Shown: positions 2,412 to 37,676 of the stretch, one piece after another
How positions within the stretch are numbered: the stretch's first letter is position 1
Layout of the letters: each line of letters starts with the position of its first letter
Origin: Candidatus Aenigmatarchaeota archaeon
GTDB taxonomy: Archaea > Aenigmatarchaeota > Aenigmatarchaeia > QMZP01
Direction of reading: 5' to 3'
Assembly: GCA_039091855.1 (NCBI GenBank)
Contig: JAWCLA010000001.1
Location: forward strand, 13,267-62,628
Length of the DNA stretch: 49,362 bases
Notes under the pieces: generated by a model
What the model was told of the DNA's origin: nothing
The model's input: only the letters and a program-made list of their open reading frames with translations
Database searches by the model: none
Translations under genes and position numbers: made by a program

Positions 2412-3038
2412 ATGCCAAAAGAAAAAAAATCAGGAAAGGTGTCCGTGGAAAAAATACTTACAGGAAAGGATATACAGTGGAAAAAAACTGATGGCAAAAC
2501 ACCATATCTGGAAACAAGCATAGACAAGCTTTACAAACTGGTTAAGGAAAGGTCAAGGGTTGGCTTTGATGAGGCAGCTGAAAAATTTAATGCTGAAAGG
2601 GAGCAGATAGAGTCTTGGGCAAAAATACTTGAGGAGCACAAGCTGATAAAGGTCCATTACCCGGTTTTCGGAAGGCCTGTTATGATATTCAGGGAAATGG
2701 AAAAAAAGAAATTCATTAAAGAGGGTTTAAAACAGAAACCGAAAAACAGGATGACAAAAATAGGGATAGGGATTGCAGGTTGCTTATTGGTTTTCTTTGG
2801 ATATGTAAACTTTGTTACAAATGCTTTCACTCTTAGTATAAGGTCGCAGCTTAACGTTATCTTCTGGAGGTTTTTCGGGATTTTTGGATTCCTTCCCTAC
2901 CCGATAAACATTATAATTCCTGTTTCAATAGTTATAGTGATTCTGTTGATAATTACAAAGTTAAAGAGAAAAAAGAGCAACACAGAAGAAAGGATAGGCA
3001 GCAAGCTGAAAAACATTAAAAAAGAGCTGGGGTCCTGA
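2412..3038 (+). CDS. membrane protein of pilus-like locus (soluble N-domain plus C-terminal TM helices)
   Basis: Lys-rich soluble N-terminal part, then hydrophobic segments IGIGIAGCLLVFFGYVNFV and IIIPVSIVIVILLIITKL. Its stop TGA (3036-3038) overlaps the ATG (3038-3040) of the ATPase gene. Confidence 0.5.
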   Translation: MPKEKKSGKVSVEKILTGKDIQWKKTDGKTPYLETSIDKLYKLVKERSRVGFDEAAEKFNAEREQIESWAKILEEHKLIKVHYPVFGRPVMIFREMEKKKFIKEGLKQKPKNRMTKIGIGIAGCLLVFFGYVNFVTNAFTLSIRSQLNVIFWRFFGIFGFLPYPINIIIPVSIVIVILLIITKLKRKKSNTEERIGSKLKNIKKELGS

Positions 3039-7600: not shown

Positions 7601-9754
7601 ATGGGTCTTTTCCGAAAGAAGAAATCTGCAATAGACAGGGCGCAGTTCAGAAGGATTGTGATGAGCCAGCAGAGGCACAAGGTTTATCTGCCTCCATACA
7701 GGTCAAAACCGATTATTTCGTCGAGGGAATACAGGATTTTCAAGCAGATGGAAAAAAGAAGGCTGAACTGGTACGAAAGGCTTGCCAAATTTTCTGAAAA
7801 TATACTAACGGTAAAGCCAGGCAAAAGGACAGAAGAGGAGCTCGGAAGCCAGATAGCATTCACAGGGCTTAGGGTAACGCCTGCAAGCGTGATGTCACTT
7901 TTCGTTCTTACGCTTGTTGTTTTCATAGTGATTGGAACTGCATTTACAATAGCGCTTATTTCAAATCCTGTATATGGGCTTACCATAATAGCAATCGGCT
8001 TGGGGCTTTCTTATTATTTTTACAAGTATCCCGCAAACCTGGTGAAAAGGCTGAGAATGCAGGCAAGCTCAGAGGTGGTTTTGGCGATTCTTTATATGGT
8101 TGTTTCTATGAGAATATCTCCAAACCTGGAGAGGGCATTAAGGTTCGCTGCTGCAAACATATCAGGGGCGTTGGCATGGGATATGAGAAGGCTTCTTTGG
8201 GACATAGAGATGAGGAGATATTATTCTGCTTCAGACGCGCTTACAGATTATATAGCGAAATGGAAGCCGGAAAACGAGGAGTTTGCAGAATCTCTCAGGC
8301 TTATAAGGGACTCGGAAACGCAGGTTCCTGAAAGGGGTATGAAGATTTTGGATGAGGCTCTTGATGTCATTCTTGACGGCACAAAAACGAGAATGAAGCA
8401 TTATGCTCAGGAACTTAACCTGCCTGTAATGGTAATACATATGATGGGAATAGTGCTGCCTGTTTTGGGAACAATAATGGCGCCTCTTGCGGCTGTATTT
8501 ATGGCAGATGTTGTGTCTCCATTGTATTTCGTAATAGGGTATGACATAATTCTTCCTGTTGTTCTCATATGGTTCATAAACAATACGCTTAGCAAGAGAC
8601 CTGTCACATTTTCGCGTGTGGATATATCCAGGCATCCCAATATTCCACCAAAGGGCAAGTTCTGGATAGGAAAGGGTAAATCTATGCATGCCCTGCCAAT
8701 AGCAATTATAATTTTTCTCGCCTTCGTATTGCCTGCTGCATATTTCTTTTTGGAAAACCCAAAGCTAATTTCAATAGGTCTTACAGATACGGAAAGATGC
8801 ACCTTTTTTGGAAACTCTTATACAAAAGAGGATGGTGTTTGCCCTGGAATTTCTCTCGCTATGTCATTATTCATCATACTTGGTTTTGGAATAAGCCTTT
8901 CTGTTTACCTTATACTTTCTACATTTCAGACACTAAGGGTTCAGCAAGGTGTTGAGAGCATAGAGGGGCAGTTCGAGCTTGCCCTTTTCCAGCTTGGAAA
9001 CAGGATAAGGGGAGGGACACCTACAGAACTTGCAATGGAAAAGGCAATAGGTGATATGAAGGACATAGAGATATCCAACCTTTTCAGGATAGCACTGAGA
9101 AACATAAAAACGCTGGGAATGACGTTTGATGAGGCATTTTTCAACAGAAATTATGGGGCGTTAAGGTATTACCCATCACAGTTAATAAAGAACATAATGT
9201 ATGCAATTATTGACACATCAAAAAAAGGAGTTACATACGCATCTGAGGCTATGCTTAGGATTTCCCGATATCTGAAAAACATAAGGGAAACCCAGGAATA
9301 CATAAGGGAAATGCTTTCAGAAACCACATCATCAATGAAGTTCCAGGCTTACTTTTTGACTCCTTTGATAACAGGGCTGATAGTTTCTATGGCAGACGTT
9401 ATGATACAGGTTCTTGTTGCCCTTGGCAGTTATCTGAACTCTATTGCAGCGCCTGAAGGCGGTATTGCAGGAATGGACATATCAAAGCTATTTGCTGACA
9501 CAGAAAAGGTAATATCACCGTCCCTTTTCCAGTTAATAGTTGGCGTTTATGTTATAGAGGTTATAATAATACTCGGTATTTTCATGACAAAAATCAGCCA
9601 TGGCGAGAACAAGATACTTCAATGGAACATTGTCGGAAGGATGCTTCTTGTTGGAATGTTTATCTATTTCCTTGTGGCAATTATTTCGAGCACAATGTTT
9701 GGCGGACTCATAAGGGAGGCATTATCAGGAATTCTTGGTATGGAAACCCCTTAA
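7601..9754 (+). CDS. polytopic membrane protein with two T2SS-F (FlaJ/TadC/PilC-like) platform domains
   Basis: 717 aa with many TM helices. Two soluble helical segments (about aa 160-270 and 480-590) each precede TM bundles, as in pilus/archaellum platform proteins. Sits next to the pilus-like locus. Confidence 0.55.
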   Translation: MGLFRKKKSAIDRAQFRRIVMSQQRHKVYLPPYRSKPIISSREYRIFKQMEKRRLNWYERLAKFSENILTVKPGKRTEEELGSQIAFTGLRVTPASVMSLFVLTLVVFIVIGTAFTIALISNPVYGLTIIAIGLGLSYYFYKYPANLVKRLRMQASSEVVLAILYMVVSMRISPNLERALRFAAANISGALAWDMRRLLWDIEMRRYYSASDALTDYIAKWKPENEEFAESLRLIRDSETQVPERGMKILDEALDVILDGTKTRMKHYAQELNLPVMVIHMMGIVLPVLGTIMAPLAAVFMADVVSPLYFVIGYDIILPVVLIWFINNTLSKRPVTFSRVDISRHPNIPPKGKFWIGKGKSMHALPIAIIIFLAFVLPAAYFFLENPKLISIGLTDTERCTFFGNSYTKEDGVCPGISLAMSLFIILGFGISLSVYLILSTFQTLRVQQGVESIEGQFELALFQLGNRIRGGTPTELAMEKAIGDMKDIEISNLFRIALRNIKTLGMTFDEAFFNRNYGALRYYPSQLIKNIMYAIIDTSKKGVTYASEAMLRISRYLKNIRETQEYIREMLSETTSSMKFQAYFLTPLITGLIVSMADVMIQVLVALGSYLNSIAAPEGGIAGMDISKLFADTEKVISPSLFQLIVGVYVIEVIIILGIFMTKISHGENKILQWNIVGRMLLVGMFIYFLVAIISSTMFGGLIREALSGILGMETP

Positions 9755-14928: not shown

Positions 14929-15269
14929 GCCTCCGTAGCTCAGTTTGGATAGAGCGCCAGCCTTCTAACAAAGCCTTTTTTTCAAAAAAGGCTTTGGAAC
15001 CCAAAAAATTATCTGAACTATGCGAAAATTTAATATAAAAAGAGTGCAGGTTCCTAGTGTTAGAAGAAATGAGGGAAACAATAAATATGATTTCATAGGT
15101 TTTGGCAATTTCCCGATGATCGGAAGCAAGCTGGAAGTCGCGGGTTCAAACCCTGAGCCTTTCTTCCCGAAAGAAAGGCTAAGGTTCATCCAAAGAAAGG
15201 GAATTAATCGGTTAATTGATTAACTGTTAATATGAAGAGTGAACACAGGAGAAAATCCCGTCGGGGGCA
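14929..15269 (+). tRNA. tRNA-Arg(UCU) with two introns (about 161 nt at 37/38, about 105 nt in the T-loop at 59/60)
   Basis: Exons 14929-14967, 15129-15150 and 15256-15269 give 75 nt. Acceptor GCCTCCG/CGGGGGC, D arm GCTC-AGTTTGGATA-GAGC, anticodon arm CCAGC-CTTCTAA-GCTGG, T arm GCGGG-TTCAAAT-CCCGT. Intron 1 contains GTTAGAAG, complementary to the anticodon-loop junction CTTCTAAC. Confidence 0.8.
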
Positions 15270-20862: not shown

Positions 20863-21055
20863 GGGCCCATAGCTCAGTCTGGTTTGAATTTGAAGCAATA
20901 TATAGCTTCTCTTCCGGAAAGAGCGCTCGGCTCTTATCGCTTTGTTAACGGCGTTCGCCGCTAATGATTGGGTGAGACCGAGAAGTCGAGGGTTCGAAGG
21001 CGCAAGGTTAATGATTGGAAACTGTCTTTTAGTTACGAAAATCCCTCTGGGCCCA
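20863..21055 (+). tRNA. tRNA-Lys(CUU) with three introns (D-loop about 36 nt, 37/38 about 40 nt, T-loop 59/60 about 43 nt)
   Basis: Exons 20863-20883, 20920-20936, 20977-20998 and 21042-21055 give 74 nt. Acceptor GGGCCCA/TGGGCCC, D arm GCTC-AGTCTGGTA-GAGC, anticodon arm CTCGG-CTCTTAA-CCGAG, T arm GAGGG-TTCGAAT-CCCTC. All stems are perfect. Confidence 0.8.
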
Positions 21056-24503: not shown

Positions 24504-24731
24504 GGCAGCTATCTGGCCTTCCCTCCTGGTTCCGGCAAGAAAGCCCAACAATGGTTGGGCATCCAAGCTGTCGGAAGTACAAGCCAGACCGTAGGGGGTC
24601 TTAACTTCCGTGTTCGGATTTCCCCACCCCTTTCTTTTTACGTTTTTTGCTCCACCGCTTTTTGAAGAAGCGGTAAGCTCTCGTAAAAAAGCGGTGTATG
24701 GGAACGGGTGAACACCCCCGCTTTGGCCGCC
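24504..24731 (-). rRNA. 5S rRNA, abnormally long (about 228 nt)
   Basis: Minus strand reads GGCGGCCAAAGCGGGGGTGTTCACCCGTTCCCAT[79 nt]TCCGAACACGGAAGTTAAGACCCCCTACGGTCTGGCTTGTACT...CCGGAACCAGGAGGGAAGGCCAGATAGCTGCC. Helix I is GGCGGC/GCTGCC. TATA-like TTATATAAA lies about 29 nt upstream (24757-24765). A T-run follows the 3' end. Confidence 0.7.
24619..24697 (-). other. about 79-nt insertion (intron or expansion segment) in loop C of the 5S rRNA gene
   Basis: It interrupts the otherwise contiguous conserved CCCAT|TCCGAAC. Internally, CACCGCTTTTT pairs with AAAAAGCGGTG (11 bp). It contains AAAGAAAGGGG, resembling a motif in the tRNA T-loop introns. Boundaries are good to plus or minus 2 nt. Confidence 0.6.
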
Positions 24732-24774
24732 ATTAGTCTAATAATTGAATGTAACATTTATATAAGTTTCTTGC

Positions 24775-31178: not shown

Positions 31179-34100
31179 ATGGAAGAGCGGGCGGGATGGA
31201 TATTGTTAATTTTGGCGTTTGTTTTATTAGTAGCGCAAACAGGAGCCGCAACCGAATATGCACCATCTACTTGCATAATACAGAGGTCTACAATTCAGGG
31301 ACATGATATTGTTTACTATGAAACAATAAATTGCAAAATAGATAAAATTTCATATGATGATGAATCAACTGTCTATGTTAGCGGCCTGGGATATATCTTT
31401 ACTTCTTGGAATGGTCTCCCTTCTTCAGTAGGCTCTATTTCCCTGACAATTAAAATGCGCTGTCGTTCACTTGTTTATAATGATTGTAAAAAATTACTTG
31501 GATGTGAAGGCATTGATGGCGAAGAAGTAAATTATAAGAAATATTATCTTGAGTTAATAAGTGATTGCACATCAGATTTGGGGTTTTTGAACCCTGACAC
31601 ACAGATAATTGTTTCGAATGGTGTGAATTCAAAGGAAATAGCCACTGTTGCCGTGACAAACGATTATTCATATTACACTTATGATTTAACAAACATATTA
31701 AAGCCCGCATCTGGATATTATTCCGTAACGATAAATAACAATAAAAAATATGTAACAGGTTCTGGCAGTAGATATGTATTCAAAACCATTTATATAGATT
31801 TAGTCAAATTGGAAGCAGAACCATGTCAATGCTCATCAGGAATATGTTGTGACGGCTGTAACTACAAGCCTTCAGGCACTGCTTGTGGAGCATCTACCTG
31901 CCCTTCTGATTACTATTACCAAAACAGCGGAAACTGCTACAAGGCAGATTACCCAGAATCCTGCACAAAAACCTGCGACAGTTCTGGAAACTGCCAGGAT
32001 TGCTGCAATCCCGTGATTTCATTAAATAACTGGAGCTGCAATCCCTTGTGTCAAAAACCAGACTATACAAGTTCATGTACAGGCCAAACACCGCCAAAAT
32101 GCATAAACTTACCTTCAACCACAACATGTGGTACAAACATATGCAGTTCAAATAACGGGTATGTTCAAAGTTCAGGAAATTGCTATTATAGGGTATATAA
32201 TGACTGCACAAAATACTGCAGCAACGGTATCTGCCAGGACTGCGCTTGCACATACACAGATTATCCCCAAAGCTGGGATTGTGGAATATGCAAAGAAAAG
32301 GACTACTCATCCTGTGCATTAACAACAGGACCGTTGTGCAAGAACTCAGCTCCAGGAACGCCTTGCACGATTTCAGGCCAGCAGGGAAAATGTGACGGAT
32401 ACGGAAACTGCACAGTTCCGCCATCTCTTTCTGTTTCTGCAACCCTTTCTTCATCCTCGATAAAGGCAGGTGAAACCACAATGCTCAAAGGAGAGATAAT
32501 TTGCTCTAACGCAAACTGTGGTTATGTTTATGTGCACGCAAAAAACACATCAGGTTCACCGATAAACCAGATTCCCGGGCTTTCAGTGCAAGGAACAAAT
32601 CCTTACACTTGCGGCTATATGGGTTCAGGGCAAAAATGCTATCCCAATTGGACAATAACAGGAATGTCAGCAGGAACGTACCCTCTTTACCTGATAGCAA
32701 CAAACGGAACACTGATCAACACATCATCTATAGTCACTCTTAACGTAACAGAAATACCTTCGGGCAGTTTGTCCATTTCAGGATTAACGCCTGTTACTAC
32801 GACTGTTGGAATCCCTGTGACAATAAGCGCAAATATTTTATGTTCTGGAATTTCGGGCTCATATTGTGGAAATGTGACCTCCTACCTCTATTACAATTCA
32901 TCCTCTTCAAGTTGGGTTTTGATGGGCCCATCAGGAAGCCTCTACACGACTTCCAATAATCCGCAAAGGCCAACTTCCTGCAGCAATCTCTGGTCAGGAC
33001 AGTCCTGCCCTGTTTACTGGACTGTAAACAGCACAAAGACAGGAACATACCACATAAATATGGTTGCCGATTCCGACAGCCCAAAGGTTGATAACTCAAG
33101 CCATTCAGTCCAGCTTGTTGTAAAGGAAAAGCCTGTTGGTGTTATTTCAATAGAGAGCCTTGGTCTTAATCCTGCCCAGATAAAGACAGGGGAGGAAACT
33201 AATTTAAGTGCGGTTATAAAATGTCTCTCTTCGGACAGCATAACAACTGTATCCTGTGGAAAGGTAAATGCATATACAAGACACAACGGCACAAAAATAG
33301 AGGTTTCAGGCCCTTTGGCAACACAAATCCCAGAAAGGGAATGCGGGACAATGGGTTCGGGTGGAACCTGCAATGTTATATGGAGCATAAAAGGAAACTC
33401 CGTAGGAACATACCTGGTTGACATTTTAGCTTACTCTGACTCTGCTGAAGTCCAGGACAAGACATCTGAAACCAAAACCCTTTCCGTTATAAAGAATATT
33501 GGCACTCTTTCAATACCAAGATTATATGCAACTCCTCCTGAAATAAACATCACAAACACAACAACAATTTCCGTGACAGTCAACTGCTCAACAAGCTATT
33601 GTGGAAACATCAATCTAACGCTCTCTGTTCCATCAGGACTTGTATTTGAAGGCGCAAGCCAGCAGTACTGCCTTTCCTTCCCTTGTAACCTGAACTTTAC
33701 TCTAAGGGGAATCTCCGAAGGCTCCTTTACAGTTTCCCTTGAGGCAAAATCAAATGAGTCAATACCAACAGCAACAAATTCCACATCAATTGTTGTCAAG
33801 GGCCCAAACCCGCTTTTAAGTCTAACCATAACCATACCAAACTCTGCAACTTTGTTTGAACCTGTTCAGGCAAAGACAACAGTTTACTGCCACGTGAAAA
33901 ACTGCGGCAACACCAAAACAGCAATCGCTTACAAAACAACGGAAGGATGGAAAGAGATATCCTATTCAGGCGATGTTCACATTTCAAACCAGCAGCAAAA
34001 TCCAATTTCAACAGAGATGTTCGTAAACCAGTCAAAGGAAATAGTCTGGGAGCTGAACTTTACCAAGACAGGAATTTATGAGATTATGGTTTATGCAAAC

Positions 34101-35783
34101 GGTTCTGATCCTGGGGTCGTAAATGCAACTTACATTACTTTAATAAATGCATCCCCTGTCAGCAGGATTTCAATAGAAATCCTTTCCCCAAACGATGGGG
34201 AGACATTCTCTCTTGGGGAAACCGTTTTCCTTAAGTCAAGAATTACCAAAGGCGGCAATCCTTTGATAGGAATCAAGCCATTTGTTTCACTTTCTTCCTT
34301 TTTGGGAGCAGAACTTTTCGATGACGGCAAGCACAATGACAGCCTGAATGATGATGGAATTTATGGTGGAGAGATTAAGCTGTTGCTTGAAGGCATAAGG
34401 GAAAGGAAGCCCCAATACCTTGCGTTCAGGGCAGGAGATTCGGAAGAAAAGATTTACATATATATCGATCCTTCGCTTTCAGTAACACTAAAAACCGACA
34501 AGTATTCATATGAATGGGGAGAGAACATAACAATATACGGAGAGGTTAAAAGAAAGGATAAAGAAACAAGCTCAGACATTCAGGCATATCTCGAATGCGG
34601 CGGATGGACAGGGCAGGCAAACTCATTTTCCAGCGAAAACGGCTCTTACTTGATAAACTATCAGAACATCTATATGCCCCCATTTTCCGACTGCAACTTA
34701 AGCATACAAATTTTGGCAAAGGACAATTACGAAAACTTCGGCAATGCTATAAAAGAGGTTTTAGTGAAGGCATACAAGGGAGATTTGTATTCCTTATCTT
34801 TCAGTATGGAAAGATACAATTACAGCAGAATGGAAAACATTCCGATAAGGGCAACCGTGAGTTATCTGGGTTCAACTCAAACCAATGCAAATGTAAAATG
34901 CAGCTTTTTAGGAAAGGAAATAACCCTTACCGAAAAAAATGGCGAATATATAGGTTATTATGAAATACCCTTTGACGCTCCTCTTAAGGAAGAAACACTG
35001 AGCTGCTCTGCTTCAGGACCCAAATCAGAAAAGCCCGGACCAGGTAGCACGAAAATAAAGATAGAACCAGTTCCCATTCAGCTATCAATAGTAAGCCCCA
35101 AGCTTTTGCCAAACAACATTATTTACGTGTTTTCAGAAAATATGGTAGCCCTTGTCGTAAATGCAACCTATCCTGACAAAAAACCCGTGCTTGGTGCTGA
35201 AATTCACATAACAATAAATAACCAGACAGTCAAGCTTAAGCATATGGGAAACGGCACATACACAACCGATGAAGGCTGGTTCACAGGCTCTGGTGTTACT
35301 GAGATGTTTTTGTCAGCGCAGGACGCTTACGGAAACAATGGCAATAACAACATAACACTTGTTGTAAACCCAAGCCAGTTCAATTGGTGGTGGCTGCTTC
35401 TGATACCAGCGGGTTTGGCAATTCTGTTTTTCCTATGGTATTATGTTAAATCCAAGGAGCAGCCAAAAGTTCAGATACAGGAGAAAATCATAAGGCTTCC
35501 TGTTACGGAAAGAGTGAGGGAGATTGTTTACAAGCCAATAAGGGTTCCCTCACAACAAAAAATTGACCCGATTACAAAATTGAGAAGGGAGATAGCAGAG
35601 CTTGAGGAAAGGTCAAACACAGTTAATCGCGCAAAGGACATTGCAGAGCAGCAGTATTACAAGAGGCAGATAGACGAGCAGACATTCAACAACCTTATGC
35701 AAAGATATGAGGAGAAGCTTATAGAGATTGACGCCGCAATAAGGGAGAAAAGGAAAAAACTCCGTGAAATGGGAGCTGTGTGA
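31179..35783 (+). CDS. giant (1534 aa) surface protein: signal peptide, tandem Cys-rich modules, about 5 Ig/CARDB-like repeats, C-terminal TM and coiled-coil cytoplasmic tail
   Basis: N-terminal WILLILAFVLLVAQTGAA. Cys-rich region about 31824-32415. Repeated blocks of the form xxxCGxVxxY...G...C...W(T/S)(I/V)...GTYxxxxxA. TM WWWLLLIPAGLAILFFLWYYV (about 35386-35448). Then a roughly 110-aa charged heptad-like tail. Many N-x-S/T sequons. Confidence 0.8.
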   Translation: MEERAGWILLILAFVLLVAQTGAATEYAPSTCIIQRSTIQGHDIVYYETINCKIDKISYDDESTVYVSGLGYIFTSWNGLPSSVGSISLTIKMRCRSLVYNDCKKLLGCEGIDGEEVNYKKYYLELISDCTSDLGFLNPDTQIIVSNGVNSKEIATVAVTNDYSYYTYDLTNILKPASGYYSVTINNNKKYVTGSGSRYVFKTIYIDLVKLEAEPCQCSSGICCDGCNYKPSGTACGASTCPSDYYYQNSGNCYKADYPESCTKTCDSSGNCQDCCNPVISLNNWSCNPLCQKPDYTSSCTGQTPPKCINLPSTTTCGTNICSSNNGYVQSSGNCYYRVYNDCTKYCSNGICQDCACTYTDYPQSWDCGICKEKDYSSCALTTGPLCKNSAPGTPCTISGQQGKCDGYGNCTVPPSLSVSATLSSSSIKAGETTMLKGEIICSNANCGYVYVHAKNTSGSPINQIPGLSVQGTNPYTCGYMGSGQKCYPNWTITGMSAGTYPLYLIATNGTLINTSSIVTLNVTEIPSGSLSISGLTPVTTTVGIPVTISANILCSGISGSYCGNVTSYLYYNSSSSSWVLMGPSGSLYTTSNNPQRPTSCSNLWSGQSCPVYWTVNSTKTGTYHINMVADSDSPKVDNSSHSVQLVVKEKPVGVISIESLGLNPAQIKTGEETNLSAVIKCLSSDSITTVSCGKVNAYTRHNGTKIEVSGPLATQIPERECGTMGSGGTCNVIWSIKGNSVGTYLVDILAYSDSAEVQDKTSETKTLSVIKNIGTLSIPRLYATPPEINITNTTTISVTVNCSTSYCGNINLTLSVPSGLVFEGASQQYCLSFPCNLNFTLRGISEGSFTVSLEAKSNESIPTATNSTSIVVKGPNPLLSLTITIPNSATLFEPVQAKTTVYCHVKNCGNTKTAIAYKTTEGWKEISYSGDVHISNQQQNPISTEMFVNQSKEIVWELNFTKTGIYEIMVYANGSDPGVVNATYITLINASPVSRISIEILSPNDGETFSLGETVFLKSRITKGGNPLIGIKPFVSLSSFLGAELFDDGKHNDSLNDDGIYGGEIKLLLEGIRERKPQYLAFRAGDSEEKIYIYIDPSLSVTLKTDKYSYEWGENITIYGEVKRKDKETSSDIQAYLECGGWTGQANSFSSENGSYLINYQNIYMPPFSDCNLSIQILAKDNYENFGNAIKEVLVKAYKGDLYSLSFSMERYNYSRMENIPIRATVSYLGSTQTNANVKCSFLGKEITLTEKNGEYIGYYEIPFDAPLKEETLSCSASGPKSEKPGPGSTKIKIEPVPIQLSIVSPKLLPNNIIYVFSENMVALVVNATYPDKKPVLGAEIHITINNQTVKLKHMGNGTYTTDEGWFTGSGVTEMFLSAQDAYGNNGNNNITLVVNPSQFNWWWLLLIPAGLAILFFLWYYVKSKEQPKVQIQEKIIRLPVTERVREIVYKPIRVPSQQKIDPITKLRREIAELEERSNTVNRAKDIAEQQYYKRQIDEQTFNNLMQRYEEKLIEIDAAIREKRKKLREMGAV

Positions 35784-37440: not shown

Positions 37441-37676
37441 TGGGGTCGCTGGGATTCCCATTTTATGCACAATAAGCCGTATTATCAGCCTCTTGCGTAA
37501 ATCCCTTTCTTTGGGATAATCCCTACACCTTTCTTTCGGGAAAGAAAGGGGTTGGGCTTTGAACCCAGATGAGCCGGTTTCGCCTCTTCACTGCTTTGCA
37601 AGCAAAGCTCATATTTCCAAACGCAAGCGCTAAGCGCTGTCTGGAGCCGGCCAGGTTGCCGTTGCCTCACGACCCC
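37441..37676 (-). tRNA. tRNA-Trp(CCA) with two introns (about 62 nt at 37/38, about 103 nt in the T-loop at 59/60)
   Basis: Exons 37676-37641, 37578-37558 and 37454-37441 give 71 nt. Acceptor GGGGTCG/CGACCCC, anticodon arm GCCGG-CTCCAGA-CCGGC, T arm CTGGG-TTCAAAT-CCCAG, D arm AGGC-AACGGCA-ACCT with one mismatch. Confidence 0.75.

Follow-up and report, generated by a model that had tools for sequence, protein, structure and literature searches.

A cassette-bearing family of probable bulge-helix-bulge introns in tRNA genes of Aenigmatarchaeota and other DPANN archaea

In this study, we compare the insertions that interrupt the T-loops of two tRNA genes, tRNA-Trp(CCA) and tRNA-Arg(UCU), in a 49,362-nucleotide stretch of contig JAWCLA010000001.1 of a Candidatus Aenigmatarchaeota archaeon (the window, meaning the whole stretch of DNA that was analysed). 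We propose that both are protein-spliced bulge-helix-bulge (BHB) introns of a single DPANN family that has moved between genes and positions, and that the copies in the window are old; this reading is probable, and most of what follows serves to weigh it. The original prediction had noticed a hairpin and a box that recur in both introns in the same order and spacing, and had taken the introns for homologues. Both points hold: a Smith-Waterman alignment of the two scores 58, against 15.5 ± 2.5 (maximum 29) for 2000 dinucleotide shuffles (z = 17), so the similarity lies far above what AG-rich composition produces, and the introns are members of one family. The aligned segment covers nt 8-60 of the Trp intron and nt 7-56 of the Arg intron (52 columns with three one-base gaps) at about 85% identity; in the same local alignment the 3' halves do not align. 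In the window, neither the hairpin CCUUUCUU(U)-CCCG-AAAGAAAGG nor the box CCAAAGAAAGGGA has an exact match elsewhere, and the T-loop intron of a third gene, tRNA-Lys(CUU), aligns with the Trp and Arg T-loop introns only at chance level.

The cassette and its distribution

The part shared by the introns is a cassette of about 50 bases, consisting of a hairpin P1 (CCUUUCUUU/AAAGAAAGG) that a spacer separates from a second purine box. Common to the Trp and Arg T-loop introns are a P1 of the form CCUUUCUU(U)-CCCG-AAAGAAAGG, a spacer of 12-15 nt, the box CC-AAAGAAA-GGGA and a tail AUUUA or AAUUA. The box is able to form a small hairpin, P3, with AAAGAAA as its loop; the sequences on either side of this loop pair with their true partners better than with shuffled ones (p = 0.0014), which lends modest support to the predicted P3 pairing. 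In the Trp intron the order is P1 (CCCCUUUCUUU-CCCG-AAAGAAAGG), spacer, P3 (AUCCC-AAAGAAA-GGGAU) and UUAC, and in the Arg T-loop intron it is a linker CCCUGAG, P1 (GCCUUUCUU-CCCG-AAGAAAGGC), the spacer UAAGGUUCAUCC and the purine box AAAGAAAGGGAAUUA. The anticodon-loop intron of the same tRNA-Arg gene opens with a diverged, U-rich copy (GCCUUUUUUU-C-AAAAAAGGC ... CCCAAAAAA), a variant that is also present in the anticodon intron of a tRNA-Gln gene (L010; loci outside the window are given by L numbers). The layout of a family intron thus comprises a linker 3-9 nt past the 5' splice site, P1, the spacer, P3 and a variable 3' region that ends in YGAA-AA, with the linker pairing to a stretch near the intron 3' end as an inner helix (e.g., CCUGAG/CUCAGG).

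Three other views of the cassette and its surroundings were considered and dropped. For an alternative fold, in which the pyrimidine strand pairs to the second purine box, covariation is as uninformative as for P1 (see below); a purine-motif triple helix of P1 with the second purine box was dismissed by reasoning on strand polarity; and a reading of the intron 5' end (CCUGAGCC...) as the relic of a tRNA 3' end fell because the bacterial matches to GGTTCRAA-CCTGAGCCTTT are chance matches and not tRNAs. In the window, Rfam has no family that matches the cassette, in either gathering or E-value mode.

Beyond the window, an exact pattern composed of the hairpin 3' arm, a gap and the box was found at eight archaeal loci in species-representative genomes and at 18 in metagenomes, with no match in viral contigs; a viral or plasmid origin is unsupported on the same ground. 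A covariance model, R1, was then built from 46 cassette copies. Counted as non-redundant matches of at least 30 bits, the family comprises 54 copies from 51 archaeal sources: 16 in T-loop introns, six in D-loop introns, four in anticodon-loop introns, about 14 near start codons and about 10 in other intergenic positions. All 26 copies in tRNA introns lie in tRNA sense and begin 3-9 nt past the 5' splice site; some T-loop introns of Micrarchaeota carry an extra, antisense cassette at their 3' end. The family is widespread in DPANN archaea, mainly in Aenigmatarchaeota, with variants in Micrarchaeota and Iainarchaeota. This distribution does not bear out the earlier claim that the introns are specific to T-loops, since introns of the D-loop and the anticodon loop also carry the cassette, and copies exist outside tRNAs too. 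The TCCC/TCCG motif once proposed as an insertion target is the 3' exon side of the BHB junction rather than a demonstrated recognition site.

The spread among unrelated tRNAs that had been predicted is well-illustrated by one subfamily, recognised by its linker (A/C)CCUGAG. It occupies position 59/60 in tRNA-Arg(UCU) (window and L173), tRNA-Gln(CUG) (L010/L171), tRNA-Ser(UGA) (L189), tRNA-Ser(CGA) (L103), tRNA-Lys(CUU) and tRNA-Asp(GUC) (both L177) and, with a one-base change, tRNA-Ile(UAU) (L104). In the case of L177, a related metagenome-assembled genome (MAG), the Lys and Asp T-loop introns are identical at 107 of their first 110 nt (97%), an identity that spans a long insertion in the P1 loop, and the two genes lie 3.6 kb apart; this is hard to explain other than by transfer of introns between genes. 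The D-loop intron of the same tRNA-Lys gene has the same start ACCUGAGCCUUU and the same AAAGGCUAAGGCUCACCCAAA, with another exon-pairing tetranucleotide (CUGA/UCAG). Copies at other positions with a different exon-pairing tetranucleotide imply that the family has moved between positions as well as between genes.

The claim of transposition made for the Trp and Arg introns themselves survives in part: a mobile family exists, but the pair in the window is not a fresh one. The Arg cassette matches the T-loop intron of tRNA-Ser(CGA) in L103 at 94% identity and the tRNA-Ser intron of L149 at 92%, as compared with 81% for the Trp cassette of its own genome. Its host gene has an ortholog in L173 with exons that differ by one base and with the same upstream gene, where the T-loop intron aligns over its full length with that of the window and the anticodon-loop intron differs. 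L012 is a more distant ortholog, located as in the window upstream of an IMP dehydrogenase gene; it has a 108-nt intron with a diverged cassette at the same site. The Arg T-loop intron is thus present in 3/3 orthologs seen and, being shared with these genes, has been inherited vertically for some time. In L153, the tRNA-Trp ortholog is interrupted at 53/54 and 59/60 by introns that both lack the cassette. The Trp and Arg introns of the window belong to different subfamilies; they are not a recent pair and appear to be old residents.

Two further observations concern the introns. In many T-loop introns the cassette is followed by a second module, a hairpin UUAACGGUUCAAACCGUUAA and then UAUGA or GUGAA, found at 15200-15245 of the window and in L103, L104, L122, L177, L173, L010 and L012; its centre GGUUCAAACC resembles a T-arm, and the Arg intron of the window has a diverged form, AAUCGGUUAAUUGAUUAACUGUUAAUAUGA. 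The cassette-less T-loop intron of tRNA-Lys begins with GGCGCA and the 59/60 intron of the L153 tRNA-Trp with AGGCGCA, like starts that hint at another intron family, one that lacks the cassette.

Junction folds and a model for splicing

In-silico removal of the introns restores normal cloverleaves for all three interrupted tRNA genes of the window, which ARAGORN calls as Trp(cca), Arg(tct) and Lys(ctt). The Trp and Arg T-loop introns are both placed after the T-loop sequence UUCAAA, i.e., at position 59/60, although the insertion point is formally ambiguous across 57-60 because of the run of A.

The archaeal BHB motif consists of an outer helix, a central helix of four base pairs with a three-nucleotide bulge on each strand, and a cut after the second base of each bulge. 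The T-loop introns of the window can be folded accordingly (cuts given as arrows). In tRNA-Arg the outer helix is GCGGG/CCCGU, the central helix UUC/GAA with three of four pairs, the bulges AA↓C and AA↓U, and the inner helix CCUG/CAGG. In tRNA-Lys the T-stem forms the outer helix and all four pairs of the central helix UUCG/CGAA are present. In tRNA-Trp the outer helix is CUGGG/CCCAG, the central helix UUCA/UGGG and the bulges AA↓G and AA↓U. BHB-constrained folds of all three lie 1.9-3.5 kcal/mol above the minimum free energy (MFE) fold (Trp, -42.5 versus -44.9 kcal/mol; Arg, -35.0 versus -36.9 kcal/mol). In a comparison of 23 T-loop introns taken from related genomes, T-loop bases 54-57 pair with the tetranucleotide that precedes the 3' bulge, and the base at R57 tracks the first base of this tetranucleotide, A being matched by U and G by C (Fisher tests, p = 0.013 and p = 0.029, for sequences that are not independent of each other). 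This co-variation is supportive of the predicted BHB pairing. The Trp and Arg T-loop introns are not of the self-splicing kind (group I or group II): they are 103-105 nt long, and Rfam has no match at their sites at E up to 5. From these folds we infer that the T-loop insertions are BHB tRNA introns of the archaeal, endonuclease-spliced kind.

In the model that we propose, the intron tetranucleotide YGAA would pair with the invariant T-loop bases U54-U55-C56-R57 into a central helix of four base pairs, and the T-stem would provide the outer helix. The splicing endonuclease would then cut the two three-nucleotide bulges (AA↓N and AA↓U), and an RNA ligase would join the exons. An intron ending in YGAA-AA could accordingly be spliced from any tRNA, with position 59/60 as a universal docking site: because the UUCR T-loop and the T-stem are common to all tRNAs, such an intron would be pre-adapted to the 59/60 site of each of them, which fits with its presence in many isoacceptors. 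Transfer between genes might proceed by DNA recombination or gene conversion, or by reverse splicing. As for the cassette, the most economical guess is that P1 and P3 act as a folding clamp which would keep the intron off the BHB and the tRNA body. The cassette-less introns of tRNA-Lys and L153 imply that it is dispensable for splicing at 59/60.

Several points weigh against the reading of the insertions as mobile BHB introns. The motif of the Trp T-loop intron is relaxed: two of its central-helix pairs are G-U, and no inner helix is convincing. Neither a splicing endonuclease (EndA) gene nor a ligase (RtcB) gene is found within the window. Base-pair covariation in P1 is uninformative, given the low complexity of the arms, a set of copies selected by pattern, and slid registers that pair almost equally well. 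The copies outside tRNAs are unexplained by an intron-only model. Lastly, mean cassette identity is 0.78 within genomes versus 0.76 between them, so that the expectation of within-genome copies being more alike than between-genome copies is false on average. Recent bursts accordingly leave no general signal, and the strong conservation across genomes may reflect selection on the cassette instead of mobility.

Copies at start codons and alternative explanations

About 14 cassette copies lie 4-8 nt from an ATG on the opposite strand, mostly that of a ribosomal-protein gene (L002, L004, L009, L097, L123, L147, L151, L154, L157, L158, L161, L163 and L167). Fifteen start-codon-adjacent genes were examined, 10 of them identified by Pfam and the remainder, including repeat instances, by reading their translations. 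They encode S12 and S6e (three copies each, one by Pfam and two by translation), an AbrB-like protein (one copy, by translation only) and, with one copy each identified by Pfam, S10, S3Ae, SBDS, the exosome subunit Rrp41, a class I aminoacyl-tRNA synthetase, prefoldin beta, pyruvate:ferredoxin oxidoreductase and a CBS-domain protein. Translation-related genes are in clear excess among these neighbours.

Read in mRNA sense, the copies at start codons correspond to the intron cassette in reverse complement. They have a conserved linker between cassette and start codon (GGGAUUURUU-AUG) and a third pyrimidine box, CCUUCUUYC, after the second purine box. The purine box before the start codons was considered as a Shine-Dalgarno sequence and rejected by reasoning, as it matches the archaeal anti-Shine-Dalgarno sequence poorly. 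Base for base, the intron loop AAAGAAA complements the hairpin loop UUUCUUU of the putative mRNA leaders. The siting at start codons could mean that the copies share a regulator, that they pair as RNA with excised introns, or that insertion favours DNA that is highly transcribed. One elaboration, which we regard as speculative and rather unlikely, is that the cassette is a cis-element of the DPANN translation apparatus and that excised introns act on it in trans, by loop-loop pairing or by competition for a protein, and thereby couple the synthesis of tRNAs and ribosomal proteins. Unless the siting just results from where the cassette prefers to insert, it would suggest that tRNA processing is tied to ribosome synthesis in a way not recognised so far. 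The S12 gene next to the cassette in L004 encodes 652 amino acids and, past ...GLIKC, runs on as VSPDTRILIADG..., an extension that looks like an inserted intein.

More broadly, selection may maintain the cassette as a functional element, of RNA or of DNA, for example as a binding site for a translation protein or as a partner in RNA pairing; the two introns would then have it in common through shared function and not through mobility. This explanation is compatible with mobility, and we consider it possible, though short of likely. It draws on the start-codon copies (S12, S6e, S10, S3Ae, SBDS and Rrp41 among their genes), on the near-invariance of the cassette where neighbouring proteins have diverged, e.g., upstream of S12 in three species, and on a cassette identity that is as high between genomes as within them. 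The fixed distance of 3-9 nt from the 5' splice site, the uniform sense orientation in tRNA introns and the pairing of the AAAGAAA flanks point the same way. It has to contend with the lack of an Rfam family, with the opposite orientation of start-codon and intron copies, and with the absence of the cassette from the 43-nt Lys intron and from the L153 tRNA-Trp ortholog.

If the cassette were instead a DNA insertion element similar to miniature inverted-repeat transposable elements, it would land in intergenic DNA and tRNA genes alike, and its survival in the latter would depend on a BHB forming there by chance. Copies outside tRNAs do lie in both orientations relative to the adjacent genes, and there are Micrarchaeota T-loop introns with one sense and one antisense copy, as such an element would predict. 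By eye, however, neither intron nor intergenic copies show terminal inverted repeats or target-site duplications, and the inverted repeat of the cassette is internal; no transposase is associated with the copies, and viral contigs hold no match. Moreover, 26/26 model-detected copies in tRNA introns are in sense beside the 5' splice site, and the inner-helix termini and the exon-pairing tetranucleotide, which lie outside the cassette, travel along with it. We therefore hold this explanation to be improbable.

Very little speaks for the notion that the interrupted genes are pseudogenes or assembly artefacts whose "introns" are never removed. The unspliced genes do escape detection, as ARAGORN finds no tRNA in the unspliced window and Rfam nothing at curated thresholds. 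Yet the exons yield perfect cloverleaves, 3/3 tRNAs seen in the window are built likewise, the independent assembly L173 has the same gene structure with exons one base different, and the pairing tetranucleotide co-varies with the T-loop.

Chance similarity of A/G-rich and U/C-rich low-complexity sequence deserves almost no credence: although the shared boxes are low in complexity and unrelated bacterial repeats carry the same hairpin, it is refuted by the model scores, the alignment with z = 17 against dinucleotide shuffles and the 54 copies elsewhere, and by an order, a spacing and a non-repetitive spacer and tail (UAAGGUUCAYCC, GGGAAUUAC) that are common to dozens of archaeal introns. The bacterial repeats have the same design and sequence, with a hairpin CCCUUUCUUUCNGGAAAGAAAGGG and, within a few bases of it, a second AAAGAAAG. 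Their hosts, among loci L090-L146, include Bacteroidota SPRUCE_29, Ignavibacteriota MFD04408, Chloroflexota J06630_15, Flavonifractor and Lachnospiraceae, the last with tandem arrays of 38-39-nt units. These loci matched the hairpin pattern alone and seem to be multi-copy repeats with no relation to the cassette.

Related systems and neighbouring features

To our knowledge, large-scale transposition of tRNA introns has been documented only in Thermoproteales, with its mechanism unknown, and the source study is reportedly that of Fujishima et al. (2010, Mol Biol Evol 27:2233). According to the summary in PMC4090602, near-alike BHB introns occur there in different isoacceptor tRNAs, at sites both canonical and non-canonical, a pattern read as intron gain by transposition through an unknown mechanism. 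The family described here is similar in that alike introns reside in non-orthologous tRNAs and at different positions. It differs in its DPANN host (Thermoproteales belong to TACK), in introns of about 60-160 nt and in a structured, conserved cassette that is also found outside tRNA genes; the summary in PMC4090602, on which this comparison is based, mentions no such cassette. Transposition of tRNA introns itself is therefore already known; new here is the probable transposition of BHB introns in DPANN archaea with a traceable cassette that also occurs outside tRNAs. Our search of the literature available to us found no description of the cassette or of intron families in Aenigmatarchaeota.

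In Euryarchaeota, the 37/38 intron of tRNA-Trp contains a box C/D sRNA. Similar to that case, where the module is functional, an RNA module resides within a tRNA-Trp intron; here, however, the cassette lies in the T-loop intron, has no C box, and finds no Rfam snoRNA match at its coordinates.

In ARMAN-2 (Candidatus Micrarchaeum acidiphilum), a 59/60 intron with a relaxed hBH motif is cut in vitro by the epsilon2 endonuclease, as described in PMC3239211. The likeness extends to the DPANN affiliation, the heavily disrupted tRNA genes and the relaxed 59/60 motif, and two introns within one T-arm occur in ARMAN-2 as in the L153 tRNA-Trp. The parts of PMC3239211 available to us describe no shared intron families or conserved cassette. 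DPANN endonucleases with an extra L3 loop accompany heavy disruption of tRNA genes (PMC5829648). For Caldiarchaeum subterraneum, gain of tRNA introns has been proposed to occur via integration of mobile elements, exemplified by a 1.8-kb element with a recombinase (PMC3293823). This model is similar in its DNA-level route of acquisition, one of the routes considered above, but the insertions here are about 100 nt long, contain no protein gene and have no match in viral contigs.

The family would provide a second, independent case of intron transposition in a distant lineage and bears on the old question of how archaeal tRNA introns are gained. It is also a tractable one, in that the cassette can be traced with a model and near-identical copies sit in neighbouring genes of one relative. 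The match between the exon-pairing sequence and the universal T-loop would account for the frequent siting at 59/60. As standard finders miss 3/3 tRNAs of the window, DPANN genomes that seem poor in tRNAs may be full of such introns.

Table 1. Interrupted RNA genes of the window, their introns and cassette copies
Feature	Position	Strand	Intron length	Basis or remark
tRNA-Trp(CCA), two introns	37441..37676	minus		By eye, and ARAGORN on joined exons (37676-37641 + 37578-37558 + 37454-37441; 71 nt; tRNA-Trp(cca))
tRNA-Trp T-loop intron (59/60)	37455..37557	minus	103 nt	BHB-compatible fold
Cassette of tRNA-Trp T-loop intron	37491..37558	minus		R1, 64.9 bits, E=1.8e-17
tRNA-Trp anticodon-loop intron (37/38)	37579..37640	minus	about 62 nt	By eye; without cassette; ends approximate because of flanking A residues
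tRNA-Arg(UCU), two introns	14929..15269	plus		Joined exons called tRNA-Arg(tct) by ARAGORN
tRNA-Arg T-loop intron (59/60)	15151..15255	plus	105 nt	BHB fold
Cassette of tRNA-Arg T-loop intron	15148..15213	plus		R1, 55 bits, E=1.4e-14
tRNA-Arg anticodon-loop intron (37/38)	14968..15128	plus	161 nt	BHB central helix CUUC/GAAG, by eye
Diverged U-rich cassette copy opening this intron	14965-15038	plus		R1, 20.8 bits, E=1.4e-4
tRNA-Lys(CUU), three introns	20863..21055	plus		Joined exons called tRNA-Lys(ctt) by ARAGORN
tRNA-Lys D-loop intron	20884-20919	plus		
tRNA-Lys anticodon-loop intron	20937-20976	plus		
tRNA-Lys T-loop intron (59/60)	20999..21041	plus	43 nt	Without cassette; comparison case
5S rRNA gene	24505-24734	minus		Rfam 5S match, 26.6 bits with an 81-nt insert
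Insertion in 5S rRNA loop C	24619..24697	minus	79 nt	BHB-like junctions, by eye

The insertion in loop C of the 5S rRNA gene had also been assigned to the family. Its membership is not demonstrable at the level of sequence or structure, as model R1 gives it 10 bits (E = 0.2). Its junctions nevertheless look BHB-like, with a central helix UCCC/GGGA, bulges AU↓A and AA↓U and an inner helix CACC/GGUG, and excising it restores the consensus loop C CCCAUUCCGAAC. Our literature search found no paper on BHB introns in archaeal 5S rRNA. The 5S gene of L177, just upstream of tRNA-Asp, has a 41-nt insertion at the same place in loop C. The helix IV/V region of the window's 5S gene is about 40 nt longer than that of L177 and may hold a second insertion.

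The window is archaeal chromosomal DNA, with genes for CysRS, aIF2-gamma, Kae1, FtsZ and aconitase X, and its IMP dehydrogenase has top matches of 76-77% identity in MAGs labelled uncultured archaeon or Candidatus Aenigmatarchaeota. At E<=1e-5, Pfam has no match for a 1534-amino-acid open reading frame (31179-35783, plus strand), nor for four frames in the vicinity of type IV pilus/secretion ATPase genes (351-1586, 1627-2364, 2412-3038 and 7601-9754). The segment 45239-45317 (minus strand) has a weak Rfam match to SNORD35 (23.2 bits, E = 0.76) and a plausible C box, AUGAUGC, and may be an archaeal C/D box sRNA.

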